64,000 nt of DNA. Source: a plasmid. This document shows positions 22,901 to 57,900 of this stretch, piece after piece. The notes below the pieces were generated by a model. That model saw nothing but the letters and a program-made list of their open reading frames with translations, made no database searches and was not told the DNA's origin. Made by a program: the position numbers and the translations under genes. The stretch is from sequence record NZ_KX443399.1. One strand, written 5' to 3'. Positions within the stretch are counted from its first letter, which is position 1. Every line of letters starts with the position of its first letter.

Positions 22901-22967
22901 CGCCCCTCATAGCGTTTGAAATGGGGGTTCCGAAATGCGTTGGCGCGGCGGCGTTTCTGGATGTACA

Positions 22968-23607: not shown

Positions 23608-23645
23608 CCCCGTTGAGGAAAAAAGCCGTTTCGACTTACGTTCGG
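23608..23645 (+). promoter_or_regulatory. Conserved element CCCCGTTGAGGAAAA..GCCG....ACGT upstream of T4SS operon (also at 46367-46405)
   Basis: 15/15 identical core plus gapped similarity, ~50-60 nt upstream of first ATG of two + operons. Confidence 0.35.
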
Positions 23646-23695
23646 CTGCATCCACTTTCAGGTGCACTGTCCGAACTCAGCGATGGAGCGTGCTC

Positions 23696-24001: not shown

Positions 24002-24045
24002 TCTGCCGTGCCTGAGCACCGACCAACGACCGAGGGGAGCCGACC

Positions 24046-27476: not shown

Positions 27477-29593
27477 GCCCGCTGTGGCGTTCGGCCGCAC
27501 CGGAAGGGCACTTCCCTTCCCCGCACCGCTCCGGGCGGCGTAGGGGGCTCGCGGGCCGTGTTCTGGTCGTGCTGATGCTCGCCGCCGTCTCGTTGATCGG
27601 GCTCGGCGGCGGTGTGGCGTCCGCTGGTGGGTTCGACTGCAAGGACGTCCCCTCCCCGGAGTTCCCGAACGAAGTCCTCGAGACCACGTTCGACTCGACC
27701 AGCGCGGACCGGGCGTCCGGCGGTGGCACGGGCTATCAGACCTACGGGTGGGCTGGTCTGAAGTGGCACACCTACGACCTCGGCTGCGGCGCAGACCTGG
27801 TCCGCGCACCCGGTGCGGTCGGTGACACCACGCTCGGCAACACGTTCATGACGATCGGCAAGTCGATGGCCGCGGCCGCGTTCTGGCTCGACGACCAGAC
27901 CAAGACCGGCAAGGCGGCAGAGGAAGCCGGTGTGGAACCGGCTCTGGCGAAGTTCGATCAGATCGTCTTCTCGATCTCCAAGGGCATGCGCGGCATCTAC
28001 GGCCAGTGGATCGGCATCGGCCTGGTCGTCGTCGCCGCGATCGTGCTGTGGAAGGCACTCAAGGCCGACGCCGCCGGGGTCACCCGCACAACGGCGTTCG
28101 CGGCCGCTGGCTTGGCGCTCGGTGCGCTGATGGTCGGTGCCCCGCAGAAGGCGCTCGAGGTGGCAGACGAGACGTTCGGGTCGCTGATCACCGAGACTCA
28201 GGACCAGATTTTCTCAGTGCAGTTCGGCGACAACGGGAGCACGCTGTCCGGCGGCGACACCGATCCCCGGAACGTGCTGATCGACAAGATTTACCTCGAC
28301 GATTGGCGCAAGGGCTGGTTCGGCCAGAACTACCCCACCGAGGATCCAGCCCAGCTGGGCCCGAAGCTGCGCGACTCGCTGGCGTTCACCTACGACCAGC
28401 AGCATGAGGTCAAGGACGATCCGAAGGCGCAGTCCACACTCGCGGAGGAGAAGGCCGACAAGTTCCGCGAGATCGTCGCCTCGCTCGAGACCGACTACCA
28501 GCTGTCCTATCACCAGTTCCAGGGCAAGGATTCGGGCCGCACCTCGATCGGGTTCATGGGCATGGTCAAGCTCGCGATGCCCTCACTGCTGTGGATCGGC
28601 GCCTCGATCCTCAAGCTGGTGGCGCTCCTGGCGATCCGGTTCGCGGTGCTGTTCGCGCCGATCTGGATTCCGATCGCGATCGCCTACGGCGGATGGCTCT
28701 CCCGTGTGATGCGCATGCTCGCCTCCGCGTACATGTGGGGTGTGGCCGGCGCGGTGGTCGTCGCGCTCTACCTGATGGCCCTGGTCCAGCTGTATGTCGG
28801 CTCGAACGGCGCCGTCGACGGCTCCTGGCGGCTGTGGTTCATGGTCCTGCTCACGGTCGTGTGCTGGGCGATCATGCGGCCGTTCAAGCGGATGTCCCAG
28901 ACGTTCACGCAGAACTCGGCGAGCATGGTCAACCGCAAGGCCCGTGGCGCGAAGCAGGCGGTCAAGCGCAAGGCGTTCGCCGCCGCGGCAACCGCCGTCG
29001 GCGGACCCGGTGCCGGTGCCGGGGTGAAGGCCGCGCAGCGGCTCGGTGGGCGCGGTGAAGATGCCGGTGACCGTCCGGAGACGCTGGCCAGGCCCGAAGG
29101 CCGCGCGCTCAACAACCAGCGACAGCAAGCACTCACGCAGTCCCGCGCCGATGCCCGCCGCGCGCAGCTGGGTGGTCGTGCCGGCCGACTCGGGCAGGGC
29201 GCCAACGCCGCCACTGAGCGCGACGCGCGTATCGCCGGGATCGCGGCCGTGGCCAGTCGCGACATGGCCCGCGGCAAGGGCGGGGTCGACAGCAAAGAGG
29301 CTGATCAGGCGGTCAAGTCCGGGGCTGCGGCGTGGAAGCGGTTCGACCAGGACGAGGCCGACGCCAAGGTTCAGGAGCGCCGCGCGCGCAAGGAACTGCT
29401 CTCGGCCAGTGTCGGGCAGCGGTGGGACGGCGGTGACCGCTCGGCGATCGCGCCGATGAAGGTCTTCACCCCGACCCGGAGCCAGTCGTCCTCCAGTTCG
29501 GTGCCGCGACGGTCTGCGATCAAGCCGCCGGAGAACGCCCGTGTGTGGAACGCCGCGACAGCTGGCACCAGTGGAAAGGACCGGTACCTCTGA
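27473..29593 (+). CDS. polytopic membrane protein (VirB6/TrbL-like), 706 aa
   Basis: signal + >=6 TM helices, charged C-terminal tail; ATGA overlap. Confidence 0.7.
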   Translation: MSPLWRSAAPEGHFPSPHRSGRRRGLAGRVLVVLMLAAVSLIGLGGGVASAGGFDCKDVPSPEFPNEVLETTFDSTSADRASGGGTGYQTYGWAGLKWHTYDLGCGADLVRAPGAVGDTTLGNTFMTIGKSMAAAAFWLDDQTKTGKAAEEAGVEPALAKFDQIVFSISKGMRGIYGQWIGIGLVVVAAIVLWKALKADAAGVTRTTAFAAAGLALGALMVGAPQKALEVADETFGSLITETQDQIFSVQFGDNGSTLSGGDTDPRNVLIDKIYLDDWRKGWFGQNYPTEDPAQLGPKLRDSLAFTYDQQHEVKDDPKAQSTLAEEKADKFREIVASLETDYQLSYHQFQGKDSGRTSIGFMGMVKLAMPSLLWIGASILKLVALLAIRFAVLFAPIWIPIAIAYGGWLSRVMRMLASAYMWGVAGAVVVALYLMALVQLYVGSNGAVDGSWRLWFMVLLTVVCWAIMRPFKRMSQTFTQNSASMVNRKARGAKQAVKRKAFAAAATAVGGPGAGAGVKAAQRLGGRGEDAGDRPETLARPEGRALNNQRQQALTQSRADARRAQLGGRAGRLGQGANAATERDARIAGIAAVASRDMARGKGGVDSKEADQAVKSGAAAWKRFDQDEADAKVQERRARKELLSASVGQRWDGGDRSAIAPMKVFTPTRSQSSSSSVPRRSAIKPPENARVWNAATAGTSGKDRYL

Positions 29594-30435
29594 TGTCGTC
29601 GTCCGGGCCCAATCCCGTTCTCGCGCCGATTCGCCGGTGGGTGCTCTACTCGCGCACCCACCTGGCGATCACGGTGGCCGGTGTCGTCGCGTTGCTGTTC
29701 GCTGCCGGGGCGGTCTTCGGGGAGACCCCGCCGCCCCGGGCGGCCGCGCACGAGGCCGACGCCGTCGCTGAGCCGGCCACGCCGGCGGATTCGATCAGCT
29801 ACGACCTCGACGAGGTCAGCGAATCGCTGGTCGTCGCGAAGTCCGCGGCGTGGGCAGCCGCGAGTGCGCCGGCCACCGCGATGGCCTATGCCCACGCGTT
29901 CGTCGACACCACCGCCTCGGACAGCAAGTGGGCCAGCGCGATCGGCCGCTACACCGTCAGCAAGCCGGGAGAGACGGTTATCGCGGCGCGGCCGCGGAAC
30001 CTTGTCGTCATCACCGGCCCGACGGTCAGCACTCTCACCGACGGCCCCAATGGCAAGACCGCGAAGGTGACCGTCCCGACGCAGGCCGGGGACATGCAGG
30101 TCTCCCTCACGGTGGAGGACGTCGCGGGCGGAAAGCGCTGGGTGGTAGGCACTCCCCTGCCGACGCTGGATCTGACCGAGGTCGCCAAGCTCGCCCCGGC
30201 CACGTCGACAGCAGCGCCGCGCACCACGGCGCCGTCGTCGACCACCACCACGGCACCGGAGACCTCGGCGCCGCGGACCACGACACCTGCCCCGTCGACC
30301 ACCGAGGGTCCGACTTTCGACCTCGACGAGCCGATGGATACCCCCGTCAAGCCGGGCAACACCTCGAATCCGACGCCAGTGCCCGGCCCGATTCCGATTC
30401 CCGAGCTCGACACCCCGCTGCCGGGGGCACGGTGA
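29593..30435 (+). CDS. membrane-anchored Thr/Pro-rich protein (280 aa)
   Basis: TM anchor LAITVAGVVALLFAAGAVF; T/P-rich C-terminus; overlaps neighbours. Confidence 0.65.
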   Translation: MSSSGPNPVLAPIRRWVLYSRTHLAITVAGVVALLFAAGAVFGETPPPRAAAHEADAVAEPATPADSISYDLDEVSESLVVAKSAAWAAASAPATAMAYAHAFVDTTASDSKWASAIGRYTVSKPGETVIAARPRNLVVITGPTVSTLTDGPNGKTAKVTVPTQAGDMQVSLTVEDVAGGKRWVVGTPLPTLDLTEVAKLAPATSTAAPRTTAPSSTTTTAPETSAPRTTTPAPSTTEGPTFDLDEPMDTPVKPGNTSNPTPVPGPIPIPELDTPLPGAR

Positions 30436-32000
30436 TCAGCGGCGGCGCCCGTCGGGCGCTGTTGCTGGCCGGCGCCGCCGCGATCGTCATCACGACTTCC
30501 GCGTGCTCGATCGGGGCGCCGGTCATCCCGAAGGACCCGTGCCGCAACATCCCCGGTGACGGCAGCAAGGCATCGAGTTCGATCGCCGACGACCTTCAGC
30601 TGGTCGCGTCCGGTCCGATCCGGCTGCCGGTCGATCAGGGGTCCACCACCTACACCTCGGGGTTCGGCGAGAGGTGGGGCGCTGCGCACCAGGGCGTCGA
30701 CCTCGCAGGTCCCGTCGGCACCAAGATCCTCGCCGCACTCGACGGCCGGGTCGTCGAATCCGGCCCGGCCAGCGGGTTCGGGAACTGGATCGTCATCGAC
30801 TCCAACGTCGACGGAAAGCCCGTCTCCACCGTCTATGGGCACATGTTCGACAACGGGCTGCGAGTGAAGGCCGGCGACGTCGTCAAGGCCGGTGACCACA
30901 TCGCCGACATCGGCAACAACGGTCAGTCCACCGGCGCGCACCTGCATTTCGAGTATTGGGAAGGTGGCCGGCTCCAGGGCGGCACCGCGATCGACCCGCT
31001 GGCGAAACTGCCGGACATCGCGCGCCAGTCCGGTGAAGGCGGCGGCGGCTTCGTCGACCCGAGCGCCGACAACATCCAGCTCGTGGCCGCCGCACGTTCG
31101 ACCGCGGACTGCTCCGGCTTCGGGTTGGCCGGCGGGGGCGAGCTGGCATTCGGCGCTGTGCCGGCGGAGTTCGAGCCGTGGCTTCGCCGTGCCGGCGGCG
31201 TCTGCCCGGAGATCGACTCCCCTCTACTCGCTGCGCAGCTCCAGCAGGAGAACAACTTCCGCTACGGCAAAGACGCACCGGTCTCCCCCTCCGGAGCCGG
31301 CGGGCCGGCGCAATTCATGCCCGGTGCCTGGGCAACCTGGGGCAAGGACTACGACGGCGACGGCAAGGCCGACATCACCTCGATCGGTGACGCCGTGATG
31401 TCGCAGGCCCACTTCATGTGCGCGCTCTACCAGGATGTTTCGTCGATCCCCGGCGACCCGATCGAGCTGACCCTGGCCGCCTACAACGCGGGCCCGGGCG
31501 CAGTCCAGATGCACCGCGGCGTCCCGCCCTACGGCGAGACGCAGAACTACGTGAAGAAGATCACCGCCGCCCGCGCGACGTTCACCAACCCGAACTCGCG
31601 CGGCCGGTTCATCCCCAACGCCGCAGGTGACAGCGGCCAGGTCGTCTCGGCTGCACGCGAATACCTCGGTACCCCCTACGTGTGGGGTGGCGGCGGAACC
31701 GCTGGACCTTCTGGCGGCGGCTTCGACTGCTCCGGTCTGACGAGCTACGCCGTCCACGCGGCCAGCGCCGGCAAGGTTTCACTCCCCCGCACCTCCGAGC
31801 AGCAGTGGAACGTCGGCGTCGAGATCCCGATCGACCAGGCCCAGCCGGGCGATCTCGTCTTCGGCGGTTGGGGCCCGAACGGTCCTGGCCACGTGGGGAT
31901 CTACTCCGGGGGCGGTCAGATGGTCCACGCACCCACCACCGGTGACGTGGTCAAGGAAGCCCCGCTCCAGGCCGGGATGAAGGCCCGCCGGGTGATGTAG
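30432..32000 (+). CDS. three-domain cell-wall hydrolase: M23 peptidase + lytic transglycosylase + NlpC/P60 (522 aa)
   Basis: M23 HQGVDLAG...GNWIVID...AHLHFEY; transglycosylase GPAQFMPGAW..LAAYNAGPGAV; NlpC/P60 YVWGGGG...FDCSGL...HVGIY. Confidence 0.9.
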   Translation: MISGGARRALLLAGAAAIVITTSACSIGAPVIPKDPCRNIPGDGSKASSSIADDLQLVASGPIRLPVDQGSTTYTSGFGERWGAAHQGVDLAGPVGTKILAALDGRVVESGPASGFGNWIVIDSNVDGKPVSTVYGHMFDNGLRVKAGDVVKAGDHIADIGNNGQSTGAHLHFEYWEGGRLQGGTAIDPLAKLPDIARQSGEGGGGFVDPSADNIQLVAAARSTADCSGFGLAGGGELAFGAVPAEFEPWLRRAGGVCPEIDSPLLAAQLQQENNFRYGKDAPVSPSGAGGPAQFMPGAWATWGKDYDGDGKADITSIGDAVMSQAHFMCALYQDVSSIPGDPIELTLAAYNAGPGAVQMHRGVPPYGETQNYVKKITAARATFTNPNSRGRFIPNAAGDSGQVVSAAREYLGTPYVWGGGGTAGPSGGGFDCSGLTSYAVHAASAGKVSLPRTSEQQWNVGVEIPIDQAQPGDLVFGGWGPNGPGHVGIYSGGGQMVHAPTTGDVVKEAPLQAGMKARRVM

Positions 32001-40573: not shown

Positions 40574-40942
40574 GTCCACACACGGCGGCTGCGGCCTCGG
40601 CTGCTGACTCGTCCGCGGCCGCACGGGGGCAATCCGGTGGCTCGGATGCTGCTGCGGACATGCGCCCGCTGGCTTCCCGGAGCTAGCGGGGGCTCGCACG
40701 CCGACGTCTCCCCTGGCTCGCGCTGCCCCCCGGCGCCGCTGTTCGCTGCTGAACCGCGGCTCCCTCTGTCATCTGTATCCATATCAACGCAGGTCAGGGC
40801 GTCTAATTGATCCTGATCTGATGTGAGCTTCATAAACCTCACCAAAGATAAGTGAACCTCTGGATAGAGAAGGAGATCGAATATCACGGAAGCTGATCTA
40901 GTAGCTAGACATGGAAGGCTACGGAAGATAAGCTAATATTAG

Positions 40943-40956
40943 TTCCCATATGGGAA
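40943..40956. promoter_or_regulatory. 14-bp perfect palindrome TTCCCATATGGGAA upstream of parA (centromere/operator candidate)
   Basis: related CCCATATGGG palindrome plus ATATGGGATA half-sites at 42200-42250 just after parG-like gene. Confidence 0.45.
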
Positions 40957-40979
40957 ACGAGCACGAGGACGGAGTGGGT

Positions 40980-41768
40980 ATGACGATCACCGCGATCGCC
41001 AACCTCAAAGGCGGGGTCGGCAAGACGACCGTCGCCAACGGGTTGGCACACGCCGCGGCCGCGAGCGGCAAGTCCTGCTTGCTGGTGGACGCCGATATGC
41101 AGGGCAACTCGACGAAGCATCTGACCGGGTACTCGGCCGCAGATCCCGCGCCACACTCGCTCGCCGACGTTCTCGACCGGAGCATCAACCTGCCGACTGC
41201 CGACGCGATCGTGCCCGCACGGCGCGAGGAGATCCACGTTCTCCCCAGCGGATTCGGCGAGTTGCAGGCCGTCAGTGACCAGCTGGGCAGCAAGGTCGGG
41301 GGAGAGCAGGCGTTCGCGCGAGCCCTCAAACAGGTCTCCGCTGACTACGACCACATTCTGATCGACTGCCGACCGGCTATCGACCTGGTCTCTCGCAGCG
41401 CCCTGTACGCCGCCGACAACGTCCTGATCGTCGTGCAGCCGGAGCAGGACGCCCTCGACGGGCTCGACGCGATCCGGCAGGCCATCGAGGACATCGCCGA
41501 GTTCATGGACAAGGTGCTCCCGATTGCAGGTGTCGTCGTCAACCGCGTCGATGGCCGCCGCGGTGACCACGCGAGCACCCTCGACTACCTCCGCAAGTAC
41601 GCGGACGCCGACGGCATTGCCCTGCTCGGTGACCCGATCCCTCAGCTCACCGACATCTCGAAGCTGACGACCGTCGGTATGGGATTCGACGAGCACCCCA
41701 AGTCGCCGGCATGGGCGCGCAACCTCCACAGCACGTTCACCGAGATCCTGGAGAAGGTGGCTTCCTGA
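40980..41768 (+). CDS. parA: ParA-family partition ATPase
   Basis: MTITAIANLKGGVGKTTVANGLA... deviant Walker A; start taken at internal ATG (GGACGGAGTGGGT RBS) rather than track start inside the palindrome. Confidence 0.9.
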   Translation: MTITAIANLKGGVGKTTVANGLAHAAAASGKSCLLVDADMQGNSTKHLTGYSAADPAPHSLADVLDRSINLPTADAIVPARREEIHVLPSGFGELQAVSDQLGSKVGGEQAFARALKQVSADYDHILIDCRPAIDLVSRSALYAADNVLIVVQPEQDALDGLDAIRQAIEDIAEFMDKVLPIAGVVVNRVDGRRGDHASTLDYLRKYADADGIALLGDPIPQLTDISKLTTVGMGFDEHPKSPAWARNLHSTFTEILEKVAS

Positions 41769-42205
41769 TGAGTGGCATTCCTGAACCCTCCCGGCCCGCA
41801 CCGCGCAGCTCGCGCCGCAACGTGTTCGCGCAAGCCGCGGAGTCGAGCAAGACGGAGGCCGAGGCCCCCGCAACGACGCAACAGCCCGCCGCAACGCCGG
41901 CGCCCGTTGCGCAACAGTCCGACGCAACGCCGGCGCCCGTTGCGCAACGCCCCGCGGCCCCGGCAACGAGGAGGAAGCGGAGGGAGGACAAGCGGAAGGC
42001 TGAAACGACGGACATCCTGCTGTCGCTCGATGTGGACCTGAAGGAACGCATGGTCGCAACGCTCGAGCACACCCGACCGCGCACCGGCATCACCTCGCAG
42101 CAGATGTTCATCCGGGTTGCGATTGAGCAGCTGTGCGCGCGTCTGGAAGCGGACTACAACCGCGGTGAGGCCTTCCCGCAGCCCGCTGAGGACATCACCC
42201 TATAG
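41768..42205 (+). CDS. ParG/RHH-like partition adaptor with disordered Ala/Pro-rich N-terminus (145 aa)
   Basis: ATGA overlap with parA; C-terminal DILLSLDVDLKERMVATLE ribbon-helix-helix. Confidence 0.7.
   Translation: MSGIPEPSRPAPRSSRRNVFAQAAESSKTEAEAPATTQQPAATPAPVAQQSDATPAPVAQRPAAPATRRKRREDKRKAETTDILLSLDVDLKERMVATLEHTRPRTGITSQQMFIRVAIEQLCARLEADYNRGEAFPQPAEDITL
41865..41950. repeat. Array of GCAACG hexamers incl. two 25-bp direct repeats GCAACGCCGGCGCCCGTTGCGCAAC and palindrome CGTTGCGCAACG inside parG-like coding sequence
   Basis: uses rare GTT (Val) and CAA (Gln) codons, suggesting DNA-level constraint. Confidence 0.6.
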
Positions 42206-42250
42206 CCCATATGGGATATAGGGGCTATAGGTGCAAATATGGGATACAGC
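42200..42250. promoter_or_regulatory. CTATAGCCCATATGGGATATAGGGGCTATAG inverted repeat + ATATGGGATACAG half-site downstream of par genes
   Basis: shares CCCATATGGG core with site at 40943. Confidence 0.45.
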
Positions 42251-42392
42251 CACCGATGCAACGCCCCTACCAGCACCGTTGCGTGATTACACAACGCGGA
42301 ACGCGTGAAAAGCCAAGATGCAATGAGGCCCCACCGGCTGGTACCCGGCAGGGCCTCGGCGACCGGGACAACCCTGGAAGGAACCCCGATCA

Positions 42393-43598
42393 ATGACCGA
42401 CCTTAATCTCCGCGCGGCGCGCATTCAGCTCTACGGGCTGATCGCCGCCCTCGTCTTCGCGATCGCCGTCGCCATCGGTCTCACGACGGGCGCATTCACG
42501 CTCAGCTTCTCCGTGTTGCGTGACCTCGCAACGCAGGGGCTCATGCCGGCGCAATGGGCCTGGATCTTTCCCGCAGTCGTCGACGGCGCGATCCTCGGCG
42601 CAACGATCGCTGTGGTCGTCCTGAGCAAGATCGACGGCAGCGACGAGGGTAAGAAGTTCTTCGTCAGGCTGCTCGTTGCGGTGGTGTGCATCAGCGTTGT
42701 CGGCAACGCGTTCCACGCCTACCAGGCCGCTCAGGAAGCCGCCCGCAAGATCGCCCAGGGGATCGACATCGGGTTCATGCCCCTCGCTCCGGCGGCGGCA
42801 GCGGCAATTGCCGTCATTCCGCCGCTGCTGGTTCTGGCCTTCAGCCACGGCATTGGCATCCTCATCAAAGCGATCGGCAACGCCTACCGCGAGTTCAACG
42901 CTCTGGTGGATCAGGCCACCGCGATCGACGACGCGACGACGACGCCCGTTGCGCAGCCCACGCCCGTTGCGCAGCCCACGCCGCCGGCCTCCGTGGACAT
43001 TGCATCCCCGATGGCCGTTGCGCCGGTCATGGACCAGGGCGTTGCACCGGATACGGCAACGCCGGAAGCCGATGCGGACTCGCAGCCGACCGGCCCTGTC
43101 GTCGACGCGCCCACGGTGGCTCTCGCGCTGACGCCCGTTGCGGACGTCGTTGCGCCCATTGCGGACGACATTGCGGTCGTTGCGCCTGCCGTTGCGCCCG
43201 TTGCGGACGTTGCGCCGGTGGACGTTGCACTGTTCGAGGTCATTGCGCCGCCCGTTGCGATCGACGCAACGACCGCGGCAGAACCTGCAACTGCGACCGC
43301 GGAGGATGCGCCGGCACTCACGGTCGAGGACCTGCTCGCGTTCATCGACAGCTCCAGCCTCGCTGAGAACGTCCGCGAGACCGCCCGTCTGAAGATCAGT
43401 CAGCCGACGATGTCCTTTGCCGCGATTGCCGCGAGGACCGGCACTCCTCACGCGAGCACTGCGCTGCGGCGTTACCAGCGAGCTGAATCGGAAGCTCTCG
43501 CCGCTGGATTCACCTTCCCGCCGCTGCCGGATCTCGATGACCCCAACACCGACGCTGAAGACGCGCACGCCGCTACACGAGAGCTGGTGCACCATTGA
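42393..43598 (+). CDS. DUF2637-like membrane protein with repetitive PVA-rich linker (401 aa)
   Basis: 4 N-terminal TM helices; TPVAQPTPVAQPTP and (P)VAD/VAP repeats. Confidence 0.8.
   Translation: MTDLNLRAARIQLYGLIAALVFAIAVAIGLTTGAFTLSFSVLRDLATQGLMPAQWAWIFPAVVDGAILGATIAVVVLSKIDGSDEGKKFFVRLLVAVVCISVVGNAFHAYQAAQEAARKIAQGIDIGFMPLAPAAAAAIAVIPPLLVLAFSHGIGILIKAIGNAYREFNALVDQATAIDDATTTPVAQPTPVAQPTPPASVDIASPMAVAPVMDQGVAPDTATPEADADSQPTGPVVDAPTVALALTPVADVVAPIADDIAVVAPAVAPVADVAPVDVALFEVIAPPVAIDATTAAEPATATAEDAPALTVEDLLAFIDSSSLAENVRETARLKISQPTMSFAAIAARTGTPHASTALRRYQRAESEALAAGFTFPPLPDLDDPNTDAEDAHAATRELVHH
42940..43275. repeat. ~15 copies of (C)GTTGCG(C) at 9/12-bp phasing embedded in DUF2637 coding sequence
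   Basis: Val-Ala dipeptides uniformly encoded GTT-GCG despite high-GC codon bias; reverse complement of GCAACG array in parG-like gene. Confidence 0.6.
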
Positions 43599-45427
43599 TG
43601 AGCGCAGACGAGACAGGCGCCGAGCAGTTCGCGCTCTTCGATATGGGGGGCGCTCCCGAGACGGTCGCGGAAACCGTGGCCGCTGAGCCTGAATCCGAAT
43701 CGGCCGAGCTCGAAACCGAAATGGTCGACGACGAGGCTGCCGACGACGAGGCTGCCGACGACGAGGACGCCGCCGACGAGGACGCCGCCGAAGCCGCGGG
43801 GGAGGGGACCGCCAGCGAGCCGCGCCCGTGGGAAGCGCTGCCCGTGACCGACGATGCTGACGGGCACGCGATCATCGTCACCGCCGAAGCCACATACAGC
43901 CCGTCCGGTGCCCGGCTGACCGGCCCGGTCGACACGATCGAGAAGCTGGAGAAGCTGATCCAGTGGGCCGCGCTGACCCCGCACGGTCTCACCGCGCAGG
44001 TGTGGTTCGTCGGCATCGACTCCTGCGCGCAACTCGGCTGGGAGATCGACCCGGGCAGCGAGGACGACGTCGACGACCTCGAGCAGCTGCGTGTGCGCGC
44101 TGTGGAGGAGCTGAACAAGGCGATCGCCGCGACCCTGCCTCCGCTGATCGCCGCCGGGTGGGAGCTGCGCGGAGACCCGGGCTACGTCGTGCACCTCAAG
44201 CGTGAGATCGGCAAGGCCACCCAGCTGGTCGACGTCATCCTCGAGCCCTACGTGTGGACCTACTGGAACAAGGACTTCGGCTGGGGTAACCGCATCGGCG
44301 ACATGGGCATCCTCGGCAGCCCGACCGCCGGCACCTACCTGCCCGACGAGGACCTGCCGGCCGCCCGCGAGCTGGGCCGTCGCCTGGCCTGGTCGGCCAA
44401 GCACCTCGGCACCCTGCCTGGACCCACCCCGGCCCGCACCGGTGCCGCTGTCCTGGACAAGATTCGCCGCGAACGCATCCGGTCGGGCAAGGGCATCGTC
44501 GTTACCGCTGGAGGCCCGGTTCCGCCGATCGACGGCGCACCGCGAGGCGATTTCGAACCGGCCGCAGGCTGGTCCCGCGTGCCGGACACCGACGACCTCG
44601 ACAACGCCACGCAGCTGGTCACGATCGACCAGCGCGCCGCCTACCTGGCATCGGCCGGCATGCTCGCCTTCGGATACGGCAAGGCCCGCCACCTGGCCGG
44701 AGAGGATGCAGCCGCGGCGGCCGCAGCCGACAAGCCCGCGTTCGGGATCTGGCGCGTAACCCTCCCCGCCGCAGGCCAGTACGCGCTCCCGGAGAAGCTG
44801 CCGCTTCCGCACCCGGCGATGCTCGAGGACCAGCCGGTGCAGACGTGGATCACCACCGTCAGCTTGGAGGGGCTGTGTGCCCCGATCGCCGACGGCGGCA
44901 TGGGCCTGGACGTCGACGACCTCGACGTGACCGAGGCGTGGGTCTACGCGGAGCAGGGGAGGGCCCTGGACAAGTGGTCGAAGGTGCTCCGCGAGGCCCG
45001 CGCCGTGGCGACCGAGACCCGTGACGTGGCGATGAAGCGGTTCCTGGGCGCCTGCTACAAGGGCTACGTCGGCCGAATGGTCAACCCCGACATGTGGACC
45101 GCGACCCGCATGCAGCACCACCACCAGCCGCTGTGGAGGGCCGCGATCATGGCTCACTGCCGGTGGCGAGGTCGCCGCGTCGCGATGCGTATCGCTCGCG
45201 AGACCGGCCGCTGGCCGATCCGGACAATGACCGACTCGTGGGTGTACCTGCTCGGCGACGGCGAGAACATCTCCGACGACAGCGATGCGTTGGGCAAGAT
45301 GACCCTGGAGAAGCACGTAGAGCTGACCGACGAGATGATCTTGTCGTTCGCCTCCGCAGAGACCACACACGACGTACGCCTCGCGATCGCCGCGGCGTAC
45401 AACACCGACACCGACGAGGAGGACTAG
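43595..45427 (+). CDS. large hypothetical protein with acidic N-terminus (610 aa); possible replication/establishment function
   Basis: ATGA overlap with upstream gene; no recognisable motif. Confidence 0.6.
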   Translation: MMSADETGAEQFALFDMGGAPETVAETVAAEPESESAELETEMVDDEAADDEAADDEDAADEDAAEAAGEGTASEPRPWEALPVTDDADGHAIIVTAEATYSPSGARLTGPVDTIEKLEKLIQWAALTPHGLTAQVWFVGIDSCAQLGWEIDPGSEDDVDDLEQLRVRAVEELNKAIAATLPPLIAAGWELRGDPGYVVHLKREIGKATQLVDVILEPYVWTYWNKDFGWGNRIGDMGILGSPTAGTYLPDEDLPAARELGRRLAWSAKHLGTLPGPTPARTGAAVLDKIRRERIRSGKGIVVTAGGPVPPIDGAPRGDFEPAAGWSRVPDTDDLDNATQLVTIDQRAAYLASAGMLAFGYGKARHLAGEDAAAAAAADKPAFGIWRVTLPAAGQYALPEKLPLPHPAMLEDQPVQTWITTVSLEGLCAPIADGGMGLDVDDLDVTEAWVYAEQGRALDKWSKVLREARAVATETRDVAMKRFLGACYKGYVGRMVNPDMWTATRMQHHHQPLWRAAIMAHCRWRGRRVAMRIARETGRWPIRTMTDSWVYLLGDGENISDDSDALGKMTLEKHVELTDEMILSFASAETTHDVRLAIAAAYNTDTDEED

Positions 45428-46222
45428 ATGGCGCTGCACCTGCCGAAGCCGCGGTCGAAGTCCGTCCCGCAGAAGGCTGTCGGTCTCGACGGCACGAAGG
45501 TCAAGATCGCCGCGGCGGCGGCCGCGGGTGTGGCCAAGTCTCAGGAGACCAGCAGCGGACTTGCGGGCCTGACCGCGAAGGTGCCGGTCAAGCAGATGCG
45601 CGCCGAGATCGGCAACGACGGTTTGCGACAGGCTGCGATCGACGCCGGCCGCAAGCCGCCGTCGGACCGCACGCTGCGTCGCTGGGCGCAGCAAGGCCGC
45701 ATCCCCAACGCCGAGATCGCCGAGCTGGCGCAGCGTCGCGCTGCGATCGAACGACTCGGCGGGGTGAAGGCAGTCGCGAAGAAGATCGGCCGCGATCCGT
45801 CGTCGGTGCGTAAGTACCTCTCCGGCAAGACCAACGAGCTGCGCAACGACGCGAAGTCGAAGCTGAAGGCCGCCAAGGCGAAGGACACCATGCAGAAGGC
45901 CGGCGTTTTGCGGCCGGACGGGACTCCGAAGGTCGCAACGATCCAGGTCACCGGCCGGGTCCACGTCCGCAACGGAGACGAAACGGGTTACGACTACCGC
46001 ACCCGCACACTCGACTTCGCGAACTCCGACACCCCGTTCAGTGCCGCCGAGTCGCAGGAGCTTGCAGCCGCCCTGGCCAACGACGACCAGGCCCGCGTCG
46101 TGGCGATCCTCGAACGCCACGCCACCATCGACTACCCCGAGAACAAGGGGTTCGACAACTACGGCGACCAGTTCGGCTTCCACTTCGACGCCATCGACAA
46201 GCTCGACGTCACCTGGCACTGA
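45428..46222 (+). CDS. hypothetical protein with HTH-like segments (264 aa)
   Basis: DRTLRRWAQQGRIP / RDPSSVRKYLSG. Confidence 0.65.
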   Translation: MALHLPKPRSKSVPQKAVGLDGTKVKIAAAAAAGVAKSQETSSGLAGLTAKVPVKQMRAEIGNDGLRQAAIDAGRKPPSDRTLRRWAQQGRIPNAEIAELAQRRAAIERLGGVKAVAKKIGRDPSSVRKYLSGKTNELRNDAKSKLKAAKAKDTMQKAGVLRPDGTPKVATIQVTGRVHVRNGDETGYDYRTRTLDFANSDTPFSAAESQELAAALANDDQARVVAILERHATIDYPENKGFDNYGDQFGFHFDAIDKLDVTWH

Positions 46223-50444: not shown

Positions 50445-50706
50445 GATGCGTTCTCCTCTGTGAAGGGGATCGCGGACCGCCACGGATCGCGACAGTCCTT
50501 CCCCCTCTTCTGGCGTGGGAGGGGAAAAAGCCCAGTGCGCCCCCGAAAATGAGCCACCTCGACGATTGCGCCGCGCCACCACCCGGTTGTCACTTAGCAA
50601 GCACAGCTTGTAAGGTGGACCCATTGGAAGCGATCTGCCCCGCAGTCCGCGGGTGCCGGCAGCAGGCCAGATCAGAAATGGCCGCGAGAAACAGGGGGTG
50701 AACAGG

Positions 50707-52974
50707 ATGAACGACACGTCCCGCGACGCAATCGTCCTCGCGCTGCCTCTGCGTTGGCCCGCTGACCGCGATGCCTTGGCGCGCACCCACATCGGTGGAG
50801 GGGACGTGTCGTCTTCCCAGTACGATGCCCCTATGTGTCGCTCGAAAGCTCACGGAACTGGCCGCCGCTGCCCCGGTTGTGGCAGCTACGGGGCCGCCGC
50901 GAAGGCCAACGCGAACCGCCGGCTCGGTCGCGAGGCCCGGAAGAAGGTCGTCGACCACCTCAAGGAACAGGGGCTGGTCGAGTCCGCCGCCGCCATCCAG
51001 GCGGCGCCGCCGAGCGTGCTCCAGGAGTTCATGGAAGGACTCGGCATCGACCCCGAGATCCTCGGCAAGACCCCGATGCCGAGCACCCACGCGAACCCGC
51101 CCAGCGCGAAACTACTGATCGCGCAGGCGAAAGCGGAGCGCGAGAAGCTGGCCGGCCCGAAGATCACCCCGGCCCAGGCCGCTCTCGATGAGGCCGAAGC
51201 GAACGCCGTCAAGGCTGACGCCGAGGCGGAGGAGGCAACCAAGACCGCCAAGAGGCTCCGGGCGCGGGTCACCACAGCCAAGCGGAAACTCAAGGAGGGC
51301 ACAGGCACCGAAGAGACCGTCGCGGAGAAGCAGAAGGACTTCGACGAGGCCAAGGCCGCCGCGTTCGACGCGCAGCGCCGCCAGTCCGAGGCCCACGACG
51401 ACCTCGCGGCCGCGAAGTTCGGCATGCGAGAGGACATGGCTGACGAAGACCGTGACGCCTACTACGCCTCGCTGTCCGACGACGACGTCGCCGCGATCAG
51501 CCGGTCCCTGAACCGCAAGTACGCGGACGAAGCAACCGAGGCGCTGGCCGAGGGGCCAATCGTCTCGCCGGCCGGAATCGAGCGCGACACCAGCGTCTAC
51601 AAGTCGGGGAAGATCCCGATGGAAACAGGATCGGGTGTCGAGGAGGCCGAGGGCCGCTACCTCGACGGCGGTACCGCGATCGTGCGCCGGGGGTCCGGGG
51701 ATTTCGTTGTCCTCCAGCGCAAGGGCGACGCCTACCACCCGGTGGCTGTAGCGAACGGTAAGCATGACGCCCTCGCCAAGGCCAACCGCATCCCGATCCT
51801 GGTTGAGCCCGAACCGCTGCCGGCCAACGCCACTGAGATGCAGAAGCAGGCGCACTCGGTGAAGGGAGATGCGCTTCTCGCGGTCGCCAGCGAAGCGGCA
51901 GCCGGCAAGGCGTCCACCACAGCCGCGCAGCAGAAGGTCATCAACGACGAGCTGGCCGGCGCGCACGAGAAGATGACCGACTCGATCGGCGCCGGCCCGG
52001 TCCGCGCCGACATCTACGACGGCACCAAGCGTCACCAGAAGCGCATGCGCGAGCTGGCCGCTGTGCAGGCCGGCGAGAAGGCCCGCGCCGACGCACTCGC
52101 GGCCGGCAAGACGAAGGTGCAGGCCGATCAGGCGTACGAGAGGGCCCACCGCCGCGCACTCGGCACACCGACCCGCGGCGGCGGCGTGATCCCGCACTTC
52201 GAGCACAAGATCCCGCCGGAGAGCCTGGGTGCCGAAAAGCACGCGTCCCTGCACCGCAGCGGTATCCGCGCGTTCGGCAAGGAAACCGCCGACGACTACG
52301 CGGTGATCCATCAGCGGGCCGGCGACCTGAAAGCGTGGGGATTCTCGGTCAGCGGGCAGAAGGTGCACACCTCCGACCTGTCGAAGCTGACGGCGACGAA
52401 CTCGGCATTCGTGAAGAAGGTGCTCGACTCTTCCGAGCGCAGCGCGCTGACGACCTACACCGGCGGCAGCTACCACTCGATCAACGCAGCGATCACCGGG
52501 CGCGATCCGAACCCGGCCGCGTCGACCAAGTCAATCGTCAGTGGCATCGAGTCGGCGTTCGACAAGTTCAACGAGCACAACCCGAACAACGAGCCGATGA
52601 CCGTCATGCGCGGCACCCGGGTGCCCAGTGGCTGGAAGGGCACCGCGGCCGAGTACATCGACCAGGCGTTCACCGTCGGCTCGAAGGTGCAGATCGGCAA
52701 AGTCACCTCCACGACGACCCGCCAGGCCACCGCGCAGGGCTTCACCGGGCACCCGCCGTACATGATGGTCATCCGCACCCGCAATGGCCTTCCGGTGAAG
52801 TCGATCTCGATGTACAAGAGCGAAGACGAGGTCATCGTCCCCACCGGCACCGAGCTGCGCTGCGTCAAGGTCGACCACAAGGGCATCAACGGAGTCCCGA
52901 CCGTGTGGCTCGTCGCCGAAGACCTGGTCGCCGAGGCCGACGGGTCCCCGTCGCCACTGAAGTCCGTCGCATAG
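50707..52974 (+). CDS. R-S-E class ADP-ribosyltransferase (C3/VIP2/SpvB-like ART domain) at C-terminus of large protein with N-terminal zinc-ribbon and long Ala/Glu/Lys-rich helical region; alt. start ~50833
   Basis: YTGGSYHSINAAITG (Y-x-x-x-x-Y-x-x-IN), MRGTRV (Arg), TSTTT (STS), SEDEVIVPTGTEL (E-x-E) in canonical order; CPGCGSYG near N-terminus. Confidence 0.8.
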   Translation: MNDTSRDAIVLALPLRWPADRDALARTHIGGGDVSSSQYDAPMCRSKAHGTGRRCPGCGSYGAAAKANANRRLGREARKKVVDHLKEQGLVESAAAIQAAPPSVLQEFMEGLGIDPEILGKTPMPSTHANPPSAKLLIAQAKAEREKLAGPKITPAQAALDEAEANAVKADAEAEEATKTAKRLRARVTTAKRKLKEGTGTEETVAEKQKDFDEAKAAAFDAQRRQSEAHDDLAAAKFGMREDMADEDRDAYYASLSDDDVAAISRSLNRKYADEATEALAEGPIVSPAGIERDTSVYKSGKIPMETGSGVEEAEGRYLDGGTAIVRRGSGDFVVLQRKGDAYHPVAVANGKHDALAKANRIPILVEPEPLPANATEMQKQAHSVKGDALLAVASEAAAGKASTTAAQQKVINDELAGAHEKMTDSIGAGPVRADIYDGTKRHQKRMRELAAVQAGEKARADALAAGKTKVQADQAYERAHRRALGTPTRGGGVIPHFEHKIPPESLGAEKHASLHRSGIRAFGKETADDYAVIHQRAGDLKAWGFSVSGQKVHTSDLSKLTATNSAFVKKVLDSSERSALTTYTGGSYHSINAAITGRDPNPAASTKSIVSGIESAFDKFNEHNPNNEPMTVMRGTRVPSGWKGTAAEYIDQAFTVGSKVQIGKVTSTTTRQATAQGFTGHPPYMMVIRTRNGLPVKSISMYKSEDEVIVPTGTELRCVKVDHKGINGVPTVWLVAEDLVAEADGSPSPLKSVA

Positions 52975-53034: not shown

Positions 53035-53208
53035 ATGAGCGGCAAACTGAGCCAGGACCAACTCGACGACATCCGTGCCCATCTCAAGCAGGGAATGTCG
53101 CCCAGGGAAGTCGCGGACTACTACGGCCGCGTCGCAGACCTCGACCTCATCGAGATCGCACGTATCCGCACTGCCGCATACGAAATCGAGCAAGAGGAGC
53201 AAGCGTGA
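53035..53208 (+). CDS. small Hin/resolvase-like HTH protein (57 aa)
   Basis: AGAAGG RBS; LSQDQLDDIRAHLKQGMSPREVADYYG; below track cutoff; 4-bp overlap with ARH gene. Confidence 0.5.
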   Translation: MSGKLSQDQLDDIRAHLKQGMSPREVADYYGRVADLDLIEIARIRTAAYEIEQEEQA

Positions 53209-54287
53209 CAGCACCGGCAACCAACGACGCCGCCCAGCGCGCCCGCTACGGCAACGCCCTGAGCGGTCTCGCGGCCGGTGACGCCTGGGGCTACCAAGTC
53301 GAGTTCACCTCGTACGCATCCATGCCGGCCTACCCCGTGGCCGCGCCGGCAGGGGAGTGGATCGTCAGCGACGACACCCAGATGACCCTCGCGCTGCACG
53401 ACGCGCTCGCCGAGGTCACCGACTTCGACGACATCCCCGCGGTCACCGACGCGATCGTCCGCCACTTCGTCCTATGGCAGGTCGACCCCGACAACAACCG
53501 GGCACCGGGTCGCGCGTGCATGGGCTCGCTGCACCGGCTGCGTGCCGGCGCCCGCTGGTACGACAAAGACGGCGCGCGTGAATCCGCCGGCTGCGGCGCC
53601 GTGATGCGTCTGGCACCAGCTGCTTTCGCGCCGGAACCGTACTGGCCCGGGCTGACCGCGCTCCAGGCCGTCATCACCCACAAGCACCCGCGCGCCATCG
53701 TGCCCGCGCTGCTGCTAGCCGACGCGATCCGGCACGCCCCCGACCGCGGCGGCCTGCTCCTCGAGCACGCCCTCGCCGAGGCCGACCGGATCTACGCAGG
53801 CACCAGCGACTGGCTGACCGATCCGTACCTCGCTGACGTCCTCGCCCCCTACCGAGGGGACGTGTCATCTGTACTGGTAGACGGCCTGAATGATGATGTC
53901 GTGGACCTACTGAACGTGGCCGCTGAGGCCCGGGACCGGCTCGACCAGCTTGACCCCGCCGACTTCGGTGACCCGTGTGCCGGCATCGGTCAGGGCTGGG
54001 AGTCCGCCAGCGCGATCGCTCTCGGCCTGCTGGCCGCGGACCTCGCGACGTCCCAGGGTGGAACAGACACAGCACCTTTGACCGGGCCCGAAGCGCTGGC
54101 GTGGGCGGCCACCAGCAACGGCGACTCCGATTCCATCGCGTGCATCGCCGGAGCGGTCATCGGCGCCGCGTACCCAGCGCCGGACTACTGGAGCCTGTCG
54201 GGCCTGACGCCTCGGTTCGAACCCCGCTACGCCACCGAGATCGCCGCGGCCGCCGGTCAACTGCCCGGGGCGTCGTCGGCAGAGTGA
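53205..54287 (+). CDS. ADP-ribosylglycohydrolase (ARH/DraG family)
   Basis: LAAGDAWGYQVEF... signature N-terminus, Asp-rich metal-site segments; contains an in-frame 25-bp motif copy (GDVSSVL). Confidence 0.85.
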   Translation: MTAPATNDAAQRARYGNALSGLAAGDAWGYQVEFTSYASMPAYPVAAPAGEWIVSDDTQMTLALHDALAEVTDFDDIPAVTDAIVRHFVLWQVDPDNNRAPGRACMGSLHRLRAGARWYDKDGARESAGCGAVMRLAPAAFAPEPYWPGLTALQAVITHKHPRAIVPALLLADAIRHAPDRGGLLLEHALAEADRIYAGTSDWLTDPYLADVLAPYRGDVSSVLVDGLNDDVVDLLNVAAEARDRLDQLDPADFGDPCAGIGQGWESASAIALGLLAADLATSQGGTDTAPLTGPEALAWAATSNGDSDSIACIAGAVIGAAYPAPDYWSLSGLTPRFEPRYATEIAAAAGQLPGASSAE

Positions 54288-54415: not shown

Positions 54416-54950
54416 ATGCAGCCGACATTCATGGGAACCATCGGCGCCGCGATGGTCATCGGAGGCGTCCTCGGGATCGTCTGGTCGCGGCGTACAGCAG
54501 ACAAGCGCAGCCGCGACGCGACCTACTTTGTCTACGCGTGGGCCTCGGTCGCCGTCTGGTTCGGCGCCCTGCCGATCATCGGCTCGATCGACGACGTCGC
54601 GGTCCTGCCGGCCAAGCTGCGCGACATCCTCTACGCCCTCGTGCTGATCGGCGGCCTAGCCGCGACCCTGTGGTTTGTCGCTGCGGGAATCCGGGCCCGC
54701 CGCAGTGAGTTCCGCGAACTCCAGCGCCGGTACACCGACGCAGGGCGCACACCGCCGCGGTACTTCTGGCGGCCCTGGGCCATCTTCAGCTGGACCCTCG
54801 GCCTGGGGTCGGTCGTCGTCATCGGCGGCGGCGTCGCGGGCGCTTCCCTCGTCGGGGCGCTGCTCGACAACGCGACCGCCGACGAGGTCGACCGGACCGC
54901 GCAGAACATCGCGAACCAAGGGCGACAAGGTCGACCTGATGAGCGACGAG
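54416..54950 (+). CDS. 4-TM membrane protein (3' end uncertain)
   Basis: clear TM helices to ~54930; open frame continues as Arg/Gly junk to 55237 overlapping relaxase gene. Confidence 0.55.
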
Positions 54951-57900
54951 GATGTCACCAAGTTCATCACCGAGCAGTACGCGAAGATGTGCCAACCGGT
55001 GGCCGGGTACGACCTGGTGTTCACGCCGGTGAAGTCGATCTCTCTGCTGTGGGGTCTCGGCGACGCCCAGGTGAAAGAGGCTGTCGAAGAGGCACACAAG
55101 CAGGCCGTCGACGAGGCCCTCGCGTGGATCGAGGACGAGGTGATCTACACCCGTCGCGGGGCCGGCGGCGCCCGCAAGGTCAAGGCCGAGGGGCTACTGA
55201 TCGTACGGTTCGACCACTTCGACAACCGTGTCGGTGATCCGAACCTGCACACCCATTCCGCGATCCTGAACCGGGTACTGGCAGAGGGAAAGTGGACGAC
55301 GATCGACGGCCAGGTGCTCAACAAGGCGAACGTTGCTGCGTCGGAGCGCTACAACACGCGCGTCGCCGATCTGGTCGCGCGCAAGCTCGGCGTCACCTTC
55401 GCCCCGCGCCCCGATACCGCCGTCGGCAAGCAGCCGGTGTACGAGGTCGAGAGCATCCCTGTCGGGCTGCTCGAGGAGTTCTCGCGGCGCGCCCAGATCG
55501 AGGATCGACAGGCCGAACTCGCACGCGAGTACAAGGACAAGTACGGCAAGAACCCGCCGAAGAAGGTGCAGTACGCGCAGGCGCAGCAGGCGACGCTGGA
55601 CACCAGGAACGCGAAGAACCCGCCACGGTCGTTGGCGGAGTTGCGCGCCGAGTGGCGCGAGCGCGCGTCCGCGATTCTCGCGGGCTCCGACCCCAGCACG
55701 CTGGTCGACGAGGTGCAGTCGGGTCGCGATCGGCGCCCTGCGTTCTACGCCCCGCAGCTACCTGCTCTCGTGCAGGAAGTGACCGACGATCTTTCGCGCA
55801 AGGTCGGTTCGTGGACCGTCTTCTCGCTGCAGGCGGAGATTCAGCGTCGGCTGCGAGAGTTCAGTTTCGCGGGCGAGATGGACGTCAACGAGTACGTCTC
55901 GGACGCGGTCGATCTCGCCGTCCGCGACTACTGCCTTCCTACCTTCACCGAGGTCTACGACGCACCGGAGAGTGTCAGCGAACGCGTCGAGCGTGGGCTG
56001 CGACGGATGGTCGATGTCGATCGGGCGGAGATGCGATACACCGCGCAGGCGGTGCTCGACGCCGAAGAGTTCATGCGTGACAACGCGGAGATCGACGACG
56101 AGCACACCGTCGCCGAACGCGTCATCCGCCGGCAGATCCGACGAGCGGAGAAGAAGGCCGGACACACCCTCGGATCCGACCAGATCGCGATGGTCGAGCA
56201 CTTCCTCACTGCGAGGAAGAAGGTCGCCGTCGCTGTCGGTGCGGCGGGGGCCGGCAAGACCACCGCGGCGACAGTGATCGCCCGCGCATGGGAAGACACC
56301 AACGGAAAGGTTGTCGCCCTCGGGCCGTCGGCCCGTGCCGCAGAAGTGCTCGGGGAGGAGATTTCCGTCGAAGGACGCACGATCGCGGATGTGCTCACCC
56401 GCGCCCGCGTCGGCATCCCGACCGGCATCGACAAAGGCGACCTTCTGCTCGTCGACGAAGCCGGCATGGCCTCTGCTCGCGACCTCGCGGACCTCACCCG
56501 CATCGCGACCGAAGCAGGCGCAGTCGTCCGCCTGCTCGGTGATCCCCAGCAGCTCGCCTCCGTCGAAGCTGGCGGTGTTCTGCGTGATCTGGCCGAACGC
56601 ACCGACGCCCCGTTCCTCGAACAGGTTCACCGGTTCAAGACCGAGGGCGAAGCCGAAGCCAGCCTGCTTCTGCGTTCCGGAGCCGACAACGCGCTCGACT
56701 GGTACGAGGGCCGTGACCGCATCCGTGACGGAATGCGGCACGAGCTGCCTGACATGGTTTTCGACGCGTACGTCGCCGACGTCGAGGCCGACAAGGTTGC
56801 CCTCATAGTCCCCCCGACGAACGACCTGGTCCGCGAACTCAACATCAAGGCCGCCGCGTACTACCGCGCCAACGGCACCGTCACCGGACCCAGCGTCGTT
56901 CTGGCGGACGGCCTCGAGGCCGCCGGCGGCGACGTCGTCGTCACCCGCAAGAACAACAGCAAGTACGTCGTGAAGGACGCCGACGGACAACGGGCCGGTC
57001 GCGTGAAGAACGGAGACCTGTGGACCGTCTCCGAGATCGGTGAAGACGGTTCACTACGCCTGCGGAACAACGTCTCCGACGGCGAGGTGACCGTCGCAGC
57101 CGACTACATCACCGACAACGTCCAACTCGGCTACGCAACGACGGTGCACCGGTCGCAGGGCATGACCGTCGGTAGCTGTCACGTTCTCGCGGCCGCAAAC
57201 ATGGACCGCCAGTCGCTGTACGTCGCGATGACTCGCGGCAAGAACACGAACATCGTCTACGCCGCCCACGATGAGCTACCCGACTGGGACTTCGAGCATC
57301 GACCGGACGAGCATCCGGCCGCGATCGACCTTCTTAACAAGATCGTCGCCCGCGACGGTTCGCAGCGAACCGTGCACCAGATGATCGAGGACGAGCAGCG
57401 GCAGGCCGCGTCGTGGGACCGACTGCGCAGCACCCGCAACCTCGCGGTCGGCGCGCTCTACGAGAACCTGACCGAGAACCTGCTCGGCGAGATCCTCACC
57501 GAACGCCAGTTCTCGTGGGTCCACCAGCTCGGCGGCTGGGACAAGATCGTCGAGATCGTCGCGCAGTCCGAAACCTTCGGTTGGGACTCGCGAGCGCTCT
57601 TGGCTGATGCTGCCGCGACGATGCGCGCCGCCGGAAAGGCGGGCGAGCTCGACAGCGAGAATCGCGCTCCGGGCCGCGTGATGGCCGAGGCCCTGCAGGC
57701 TGCGACGAGCCGGGAGAACTGCAGTCCCCTCCCCCACACTCGCACCGACGCGGTGGCCGGATACTCGGTGCCGGCCCTGAGCGAGGCTGCGGCCGAGACC
57801 GACCCGATCCTCGCCCCCTACGTCCGATCGCAACAGCAGCAGATGCACGCGTTCGTCGACGCGTACACGACCGCGGCCATCGCCGAGAACGCCGCATGGG

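Follow-up and report, generated by a model that had tools for sequence, protein, structure and literature searches.

A dense array of a short DNA heptamer, C(G/A)TTGCG, runs through the partition region of the plasmid in sequence record NZ_KX443399.1, a linear virulence plasmid of the pVAPN type from Prescottella (Rhodococcus) equi of which a stretch of 64,000 nucleotides (the window) was analyzed. The region holds a parA-parB pair followed by a gene for a membrane protein with a DUF2637 domain and, at its C terminus, a predicted helix-turn-helix (HTH) domain (Table 1). The array is lodged in codons for segments of ParB and of the DUF2637 protein that are predicted to be disordered and sequence-tolerant, and in the spacer between the two genes. 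It is very probably a selected DNA element. The chances are about even that the locus combines two neighboring but independent protein-DNA systems, one for type Ib partition (par) and the other the heptamer array.

Forty-four [GA]TTGC sites of the C(G/A)TTGCG consensus were located within 41.7-43.4 kb; the heptamer alone is conserved and its flanking bases are not. CGTTGC matches the window 74 times, and 30 of these matches fall within 41817-43271, which is 2.3% of its length. On the whole plasmid (~127 kb) the cluster is unique, with 26 of the 57 CGTTGC[GA] copies in three adjacent 1-kb bins and ~0.3 per kb elsewhere. The copies in parB are arranged as GCAACG-N8-CGTTGCGCAACG units. Seven GCAACG hexamers and a 12-bp palindrome in this gene had been reported by an earlier reading of the DNA made from the sequence only, and both are present, the former together with two CGTTGC copies and the latter as CGTTGCGCAACG at 41938-41949. 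Its two 25-bp direct repeats are genuine repetition, but belong to a 33-bp unit repeated 2.3 times at 41877-41952. The GCAACG-N13-CGTTGCG arrangement in the spacer is conserved in the Rhodococcus plasmid pNSL1. The dense second part of the array lies exactly within the linker-coding segment of the DUF2637 gene, and sparser heptamers occur at 42515-42882, in the part that codes for the membrane domain. This gene carries 13 plus-strand CGTTGC[GA] copies, eleven of them exact CGTTGCG, along with ATTGC[GA] variants and six reverse copies, and the dense part is phased at 9/12/15/18 bp. The sequence-only reading had given ~15 CGTTGCG copies at 9/12-bp phasing, a slight overcount of repeats that do exist. 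In AlphaFold2 models the dense parts coincide with disordered segments, residues 29-80 of ParB (nt 41852-42008) and residues 183-305 of the DUF2637 protein (nt 42939-43307). Reverse-forward pairs prefer a 16-bp spacing (38 of 82 inverted pairs), and an overlapping arrangement, GTTGCGCAAC, is also preferred, as expected for a dimeric binder.

Codon usage was compared with the other genes of the window. The array is built from codons that are in the minority there, where GTT accounts for 6.3% of Val, CAA for 9.9% of Gln, ATT for 4.4% of Ile and GCA for 11% of Ala codons, which bears out the earlier observation that the repeats use the rare GTT and CAA. Val-Ala occurs 15 times in the DUF2637 gene and is encoded as GTT-GC[GA] in 13 cases. 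The preference extends across 17 homologous DUF2637 genes, in which 135 of 145 linker Val-Ala pairs use GTT and the other linker Val codons stay near the baseline. Random synonymous codons were looked for in homologs at 45-76% identity; these keep GTT, GCA and CAA in the repeats. In pNSL1 and the more distant pRB11 the heptamers are kept even where the linker peptides differ (PVAHDVAPVAHHVAS...). Eighteen genes between them read the motif in five out of six frame and orientation combinations (VA 142, AT 64, xNA 47, QR 19, xLx 21), and in one locus (L014) it lies mainly on the opposite strand and encodes GNATPT repeats. Non-coding copies occur at 42258 and 42277 and at 6340-6440 of pRB11, downstream of its DUF2637 gene. 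An invariant Gly-Ala-Thr in the membrane domain is encoded as GCA-AC(N) in 17/18 array-bearing genes versus 0/5 array-less genes with the same residues. The selection on the DNA sequence itself that had been proposed is thus borne out by the GTT usage, the five readings and the non-coding copies.

To see what the array accompanies, 53 loci were collected from plasmids and genomes (numbered with the prefix L), and 41 non-redundant loci were compared. A dense array is present in all 19 loci whose DUF2637 protein carries the C-terminal helix [AT]STA[LM]RR[YF] and in none of the 22 others. A strict regular expression for the helix gave 17/0/2/22 (p = 1e-9), and the other two array loci read TSTAL. 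The array is independent of ribbon-helix-helix (RHH) ParB (p = 0.76) and does not track ParA or Rep either; the DUF2637-HTH gene is the sole gene present at every array. Nocardia loci with ParA/ParB and 3-6 palindromes have neither the DUF2637 gene nor the array, and L035, with ParA/ParB, palindromes and a different DUF2637 helix, has no dense array. Conversely, the array is present without an adjacent ParA in L014, L025, L030 and L033, and in L023-L028 an unrelated par operon with CTAGC-type flanking repeats accompanies a DUF2637 gene that still contains the CGTTGCG array. A sister clade with the helix TST[AS]WRRY has a weaker array with a TTGCG core, and T-ending codons before Ala make up 43% there versus 14% elsewhere (p = 2e-12). 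In clades with any other helix no array is seen. The membrane domain of the array-less L012 group nests in the array-bearing clade and its C-terminal domain falls outside all others, in neighbor-joining domain trees without support values. A third motif, GTTGTAC, which emerged from a pooled k-mer search of the L012-type clade, was rejected as an array, since its sites reduce to Tyr-Asn codons conserved at three or four homologous positions.

The DUF2637 protein is modeled by AlphaFold2 with four long membrane helices, a disordered linker and a four-helix C-terminal domain. Its Pfam match to PF10935 covers residues 20-146 (33.1 bits against a 22.8-bit cut-off, 6e-8), and both termini are predicted to be cytoplasmic by the positive-inside rule. 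Foldseek superposes the C-terminal domain on HTH domains of the Lrp/AsnC type with probabilities of 0.97-0.99 and root-mean-square deviations of 2-4 Å over 49-59 residues. Homologs occur in 166 plasmid records, almost all from Mycobacteriales, and the number of Rhodococcus plasmids in which a DUF2637-HTH gene adjoins a par locus is well above one hundred. Identity with Streptomyces SpdB was considered and rejected, since SpdB of pIJ101 has no Pfam DUF2637 match and reaches a probability of 0.3% in hhalign against the family alignment. From the co-occurrence of array and helix and from the structural model, the odds that the DUF2637-HTH protein is the one that binds the array are put at about one half.

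The partition locus that the sequence-only reading had recognized consists, by homology and predicted structure, of a small Walker ParA and an RHH ParB. ParA matches Pfam AAA_31 (4e-38) and CbiA (3e-21), contains a KGGVGKT motif and is annotated as a ParA family protein in NZ_AP024188.1. Its start was placed at 40980 because the ATG at 40950 sits inside palindrome 1 and is out of frame in pNSL1. The parB start overlaps the parA stop (TGATG, 41766-41770). Profile and model evidence places the 145-aa parB product in the pCXC100 ParB family (PF18064) of RHH centromere-binding proteins. A profile of 37 ParB sequences matches the structure of pCXC100 ParB (PDB 3NO7) over the whole RHH domain (E = 0.004), 3NO7 is also the top, though weak, Foldseek match, and PF18064 is precomputed for 56 of 57 homologs. 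A single-sequence hmmscan of the protein at E <= 0.01 gave no match, and the PF18064 match was therefore counted as weak. The AlphaFold2 model has predicted local distance difference test (pLDDT) values <50 at residues 32-71 and helices at 89-101 and 108-130. The earlier label 'parG-like' fits the predicted function, RHH centromere binding, and not the sequence family: the protein has no match to the ParG family in Pfam or NCBIfam and has the RHH fold class alone in common with it. By analogy with ParG and omega (PMC3074162), contact with ParA is likely to be made by the conserved N-terminal peptide MSGIPEPxRPAPRRxRNTFAQA. Zero to four (A)TPAPVAQQ units are found per ParB homolog, which makes the peptide itself dispensable. 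A second type of ParB able to bind TTGC-core repeats was sought on pVAPN and none was found.

Two palindromes had been described as bracketing parA and the parG-like gene, and they do: exact CCCATATGGG occurs only twice in the 64 kb, as the cores of the copies at 40943 and 42200. About 0.9 matches to CCCATATGGG with <=1 mismatch are expected by chance in 64 kb. In the downstream copy CTATAGCCCATATGGGATATAGGGGCTATAG begins at 42200 inside an imperfect palindrome of 26-34 bp, and an extra ATATGGG half-site follows at 42236-42245. Across loci the palindrome spans ~20 bp around the CCCATATGGG core, with a consensus of about CTAGTGCCCATATGGGCACTAG. Of 21 loci with RHH ParB (Rhodococcus, Nocardia, Gordonia and Mycobacterium), 15 have an equivalent palindrome upstream of parA, against 1 of 20 loci without this ParB (p = 1e-5), and equivalents also lie 5-40 bp after parB in RHH-ParB loci. 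The palindrome does not follow the DUF2637 clade (p = 1). The putative DNA-facing ribbon of ParB, DILLSL, is conserved wherever the palindrome occurs. The CCCATATGGG-core palindromes are therefore probably the sites of ParB, likely as centromere and operator.

We infer a scheme from the binding step onward, covering which protein would occupy which site, the attachment to the membrane and the phenotype. ParB would bind the bracketing palindromes, and the upstream copy, in the promoter or 5'-untranslated region (5'-UTR), would double as an operator and allow autoregulation. The DUF2637 protein, anchored in the membrane by its four helices, would bind the heptamers through its C-terminal HTH domain, which the flexible linker of ~125 residues would let reach the DNA. 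By occupying many sites within and near the gene that encodes it, the protein would keep the partition region tethered to the membrane. If the protein is inserted into the membrane during translation, loading would favor the encoding plasmid. The purpose would be stable inheritance alongside ParAB or positioning for transfer. Membrane tethering is offered as a tentative function of the array, and it is a possibility of somewhat less than even weight that DUF2637-HTH proteins form an unrecognized class of integral-membrane, centromere-like DNA-binding proteins that attach the plasmid to the membrane with cis-preferential loading.

Several observations weigh against this scheme. The HTH assignment is modest, with Foldseek E values >0.3 in the whole-protein search and E = 0.05 for Pfam HTH_AsnC. 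Phylogeny structures the correlation of the array with the helix, which amounts to perhaps three independent contrasts. Distant DUF2637-HTH genes of Gordonia, R. fascians and pVAPA were searched for arrays, and none was found. The array spills into parB and in L015, L017 and L021 also lies upstream of parA, which leaves room for a par-related role, and in the par operons of pVAPA, L017 and L038 repeats with a TTGC core occupy classical centromere positions. Part of the local repetition is recent duplication, as tandem units of 33, 18 and 21 bp indicate.

The tandem units, together with a copy number that varies among homologs and a clear tandemly amplified block in L023, could be taken to mean that the repeats have no function and are an expansion of a Val-Ala-rich linker with inherited codons. 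This is highly improbable: linkers that cannot be aligned as protein still keep the heptamer with diverged flanks and a fixed core, a single non-repeated site in the membrane domain keeps its rare GCA in 17/18 genes, and the motif is found on both strands and also in non-coding DNA. Tandem duplication accounts for some of the local copies, not for their retention across lineages. The motif also makes rare-codon clusters exactly in the linker regions, and a slight TTGCG excess is seen in neighboring genes, which would suit either a pause during membrane insertion, with the array acting as RNA, or binding by a host or other plasmid factor. Both orientations, five reading frames and the non-coding copies argue against a role in mRNA or translation, and the DUF2637-HTH gene is the only gene at every array, which makes this group of explanations unlikely.

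A parS centromere bound by RHH ParB, with the palindromes as operators only, would account for an array that adjoins and enters the par operon. The phasing at 9/12 bp is reminiscent of pCXC100, where ParB binds nine 9-bp repeats (PMC3074162), other Rhodococcus par operons have flanking TTGC-core repeats, and RHH partition proteins usually need many subsites where just two or three palindromes are present here. The sequence-only reading had likewise named a centromere-like (parS) array among its candidates. The locus comparison went the other way: the array is independent of ParB, is found with unrelated ParA/ParB types or none, and tracks the DUF2637-HTH gene instead, and RHH ParB without DUF2637 (Nocardia) or with another helix (L035) comes with palindromes and no array. 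Conservation of the DILLSL ribbon follows the palindrome and also counts against binding of the array by ParB, which is distinctly unlikely. The earlier suggestion of a translocase-recognition array finds some footing in a plasmid-encoded protein with an FtsK_SpoIIIE domain (20118-22274), in the relaxase-independent transfer of pVAPN by a TraB-type translocase given in a 2019 review (PMC6852188) and in the recognition of short clt repeats by TraB (PMC4447253). However, this sole FtsK-like gene is 20 kb from the array and adjoins genes for a VirB4-like ATPase and a cell-wall hydrolase, the plasmid also has a TrwC relaxase, and remote homologs of the protein occur in Enterococcus and Clostridium plasmids, a profile that suggests a type IV coupling protein, for which no DNA motif is required. 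The array is made of 7-mers that point both ways rather than of direct 8-mers, and plasmids without a dense array carry FtsK-like proteins at 60% identity. A clt-like recognition locus is accordingly very unlikely. Rep iterons were rejected because the same array stands beside unrelated Rep genes or none, and a Chi-like reading because the array is clustered and bidirectional. Binding by the DUF2637-HTH protein is the reading carried forward here.

Table 1 Features of the partition region, in window coordinates
Feature	Position	Strand	Description
Palindrome 1, TTCCCATATGGGAA	40943-40956	.	24-37 nt before parA start codon; putative ParB operator/centromere site
parA	40980-41768	+	262 aa; type Ib Walker ATPase without N-terminal HTH
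parB	41768-42205	+	145 aa; N-terminal peptide, predicted disordered middle (residues 29-80), C-terminal RHH
Array part 1	41817-41968	.	Seven GCAACG and two CGTTGC, in the disordered-region coding part of parB
Palindrome 2, composite CCCTATAGCCCATATGGGATATAGGGGCTATAGG	42198-42231	.	Overlaps parB stop codon
Intergenic inverted pair GCAACG-N13-CGTTGCG	42258-42283	.	Non-coding, spacer between parB and the DUF2637 gene
GC-rich hairpin	42325-42357	.	35-70 nt upstream of DUF2637 start codon
DUF2637-HTH gene	42393-43598	+	401 aa; membrane helices 1-182, disordered linker 183-305, HTH 311-370 (predicted)
Array part 2 (dense)	42947-43292	.	~23 C(G/A)TTGC(G/A), mostly Val-Ala or Ile-Ala
C-terminal HTH domain coding segment	43323-43502	+	pLDDT ~95; putative recognition helix ASTALRRYQRAE

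The hairpin in the spacer is maintained by compensatory changes, with 6 of 8 pairs kept through double changes among 23 loci. The hairpin followed by CGACCGG...GGAAGGA (the ribosome-binding site)...ATG is found upstream of every DUF2637 gene examined. An Rfam scan returned only a sub-threshold match to sar on the minus strand at 42321-42390 (38.9 bits against a gathering score of 43, E = 1e-5 to 1e-6). The sar RNA of phage P22 is an antisense RNA that masks the ribosome-binding site of ant, downstream of the RHH gene arc. Possible roles of the hairpin are a U-less terminator of parAB, a 5'-UTR element and a cis-antisense RNA over the DUF2637 ribosome-binding site. A consensus scan of 40.5-43.7 kb found no promoter or terminator, and such a scan is uninformative in a high-GC actinobacterium.

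Related loci show other arrangements of RHH genes and flanking repeats. In L012, L013, L014, L020 and L022 (~4950-5200) an RHH protein of 61-82 aa, corresponding to the ParB C-terminal domain only, is encoded directly upstream of DUF2637 without ParA, which suggests a regulator or partner of the DUF2637 gene that is independent of partition. In pVAPA (L053: 2815-2990, 4340-4540) four copies of CTGTTGCA plus CCGTTGCAACGG palindromes flank the par operon, in L038 (1510-2290, 3415-3450) the flanks consist of ~800 bp of GCATTGCGT/GCAATGCAT 9-mers, and in L023 (1940-2640, 3845-3880) they carry CTAGC-core repeats. These three par operons have non-coding arrays on both sides, each with its own motif, several of which share a TTGC core, and the arrays are probably the centromeres of those systems.

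Over the segment 40700-43700, identity is 99.9% to linear virulence plasmids of the pVAPN type (NZ_AP024188.1, 125 kb) and ~76% to Rhodococcus plasmids of the pNSL1 group. The gene order is Rep, a 206-aa open reading frame, ParA, the 145-aa protein, the DUF2637 protein, a 610-aa protein, a 264-aa protein and cutinase. The 2019 review, on R. equi, describes a rep-parA module and an adjacent 'putative phage excisionase gene' as conserved in circular and linear rhodococcal plasmids (PMC6852188); this excisionase gene is the DUF2637 gene, and a literature search, in which DUF2637 came up only in two unrelated papers, found no functional study of it. The 610-aa protein (43595-45427) has a weak, sub-cut-off NCBIfam match to the telomere-associated protein Tap (7e-7), and the 264-aa protein (45428-46222) has one to the terminal protein Tpg (0.015) and also matches an excisionase-like HTH. 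On these matches, telomere-replication genes of the linear plasmid would directly follow the par/DUF2637 module. The Tap-like gene of pRB11 is reduced to a truncated N-terminal remnant filled with heptamers.

Elsewhere in the window, transfer genes occupy 20118-32000 and 54675-58145 and encode the FtsK/SpoIIIE protein, a VirB4-like AAA_10 ATPase, an M23/NlpC-P60/SLT hydrolase and a TrwC (MOBF) relaxase-helicase. By sequence the set looks like a relaxase/type IV secretion system profile, as opposed to the relaxase-independent, TraB-mediated transfer described for pVAPN (PMC6852188). A 773-aa protein with a C-terminal ADP-ribosyltransferase toxin domain (50653-52974) is followed by an ADP-ribosylglycohydrolase (53205-54287), and the two may be a toxin/immunity-like pair between the backbone and the relaxase. 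The GC content falls to 0.56 at 62001-64000 from ~0.67-0.70 elsewhere in the window, as would fit the beginning of the vap pathogenicity island, which is horizontally acquired and annotated further along the record.

The array is a case of dual coding, in which a dense candidate protein-binding DNA array is fitted into the codons of disordered segments and kept by rare synonymous codons across diverged lineages. Low-complexity linkers can thus be shaped by selection on the DNA and not on the peptide, which matters for annotation, for codon optimization of these genes and for evolutionary rate tests. The analysis separates the cis elements of the DUF2637 gene from the ParB sites and gives a testable role to a backbone gene common to relatives of the R. 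equi virulence plasmids and to large Rhodococcus catabolic plasmids (pNSL1, pRHL1 and others). If the plasmid is indeed tethered to the membrane, Actinobacteria would have a new accessory means of maintaining plasmids, a plasmid form of the old membrane-attachment model, and the tether would offer a handle for curing or stabilizing such plasmids.

As a new member of the type Ib/pCXC100 ParB family, the par part is ordinary except that its site architecture differs. As in pCXC100 of Leifsonia xyli (PDB 3NO7, PF18064; PMC3074162), a small Walker ParA is directly followed by parB, and ParB combines a flexible N-terminal half with a C-terminal RHH that ends in a (Y/H)N-G-x-F tail. Unlike the pCXC100 family, there are no unspaced 9-bp direct repeats upstream of parA here; a single 14-bp palindrome stands there, and the candidate sites are palindromes of 14-20 bp, one before parA and one after parB. 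In par2 of pB171, parC1 and parC2 flank the type Ib parAB operon on both sides, as the bracketing sites do here; each parC is built as an array of short direct repeats, and the ParB of that system is unrelated in sequence.

The array has partial counterparts in several systems. The omega protein of pSM19035 binds heptamer subsites in direct and inverted orientation, in contiguous, non-coding heptads. The spo0J gene of Bacillus subtilis contains a parS centromere site inside coding sequence, as a single site. RacA anchors the chromosome to the cell envelope through clustered ram sites; it is a soluble DNA-binding protein and needs DivIVA. To our knowledge none of the three joins an integral membrane anchor to an array in the codons of a disordered region, and no described system was found that pairs an integral-membrane HTH protein with a ~45-copy array in the disordered-region codons of two genes. 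SpdA2 of Streptomyces pIJ101 is, like the candidate here, an actinobacterial plasmid DNA-binding protein with sites (sps) inside its own coding sequence (PMC4170104). The sps sites can be removed by synonymous changes, and their removal affected segregational stability (PMC4170104). SpdA2 differs in being small and soluble and in having two or three palindromes of 12 bp, whereas the candidate here is a membrane protein with ~45 heptamers over two genes. The TraB/clt system shares short repeats on an actinobacterial plasmid and their recognition by a membrane-located DNA-handling protein (PMC4447253); TraB is an FtsK-like pump that reads direct 8-bp clt repeats, whereas the DUF2637 protein has no ATPase domain.

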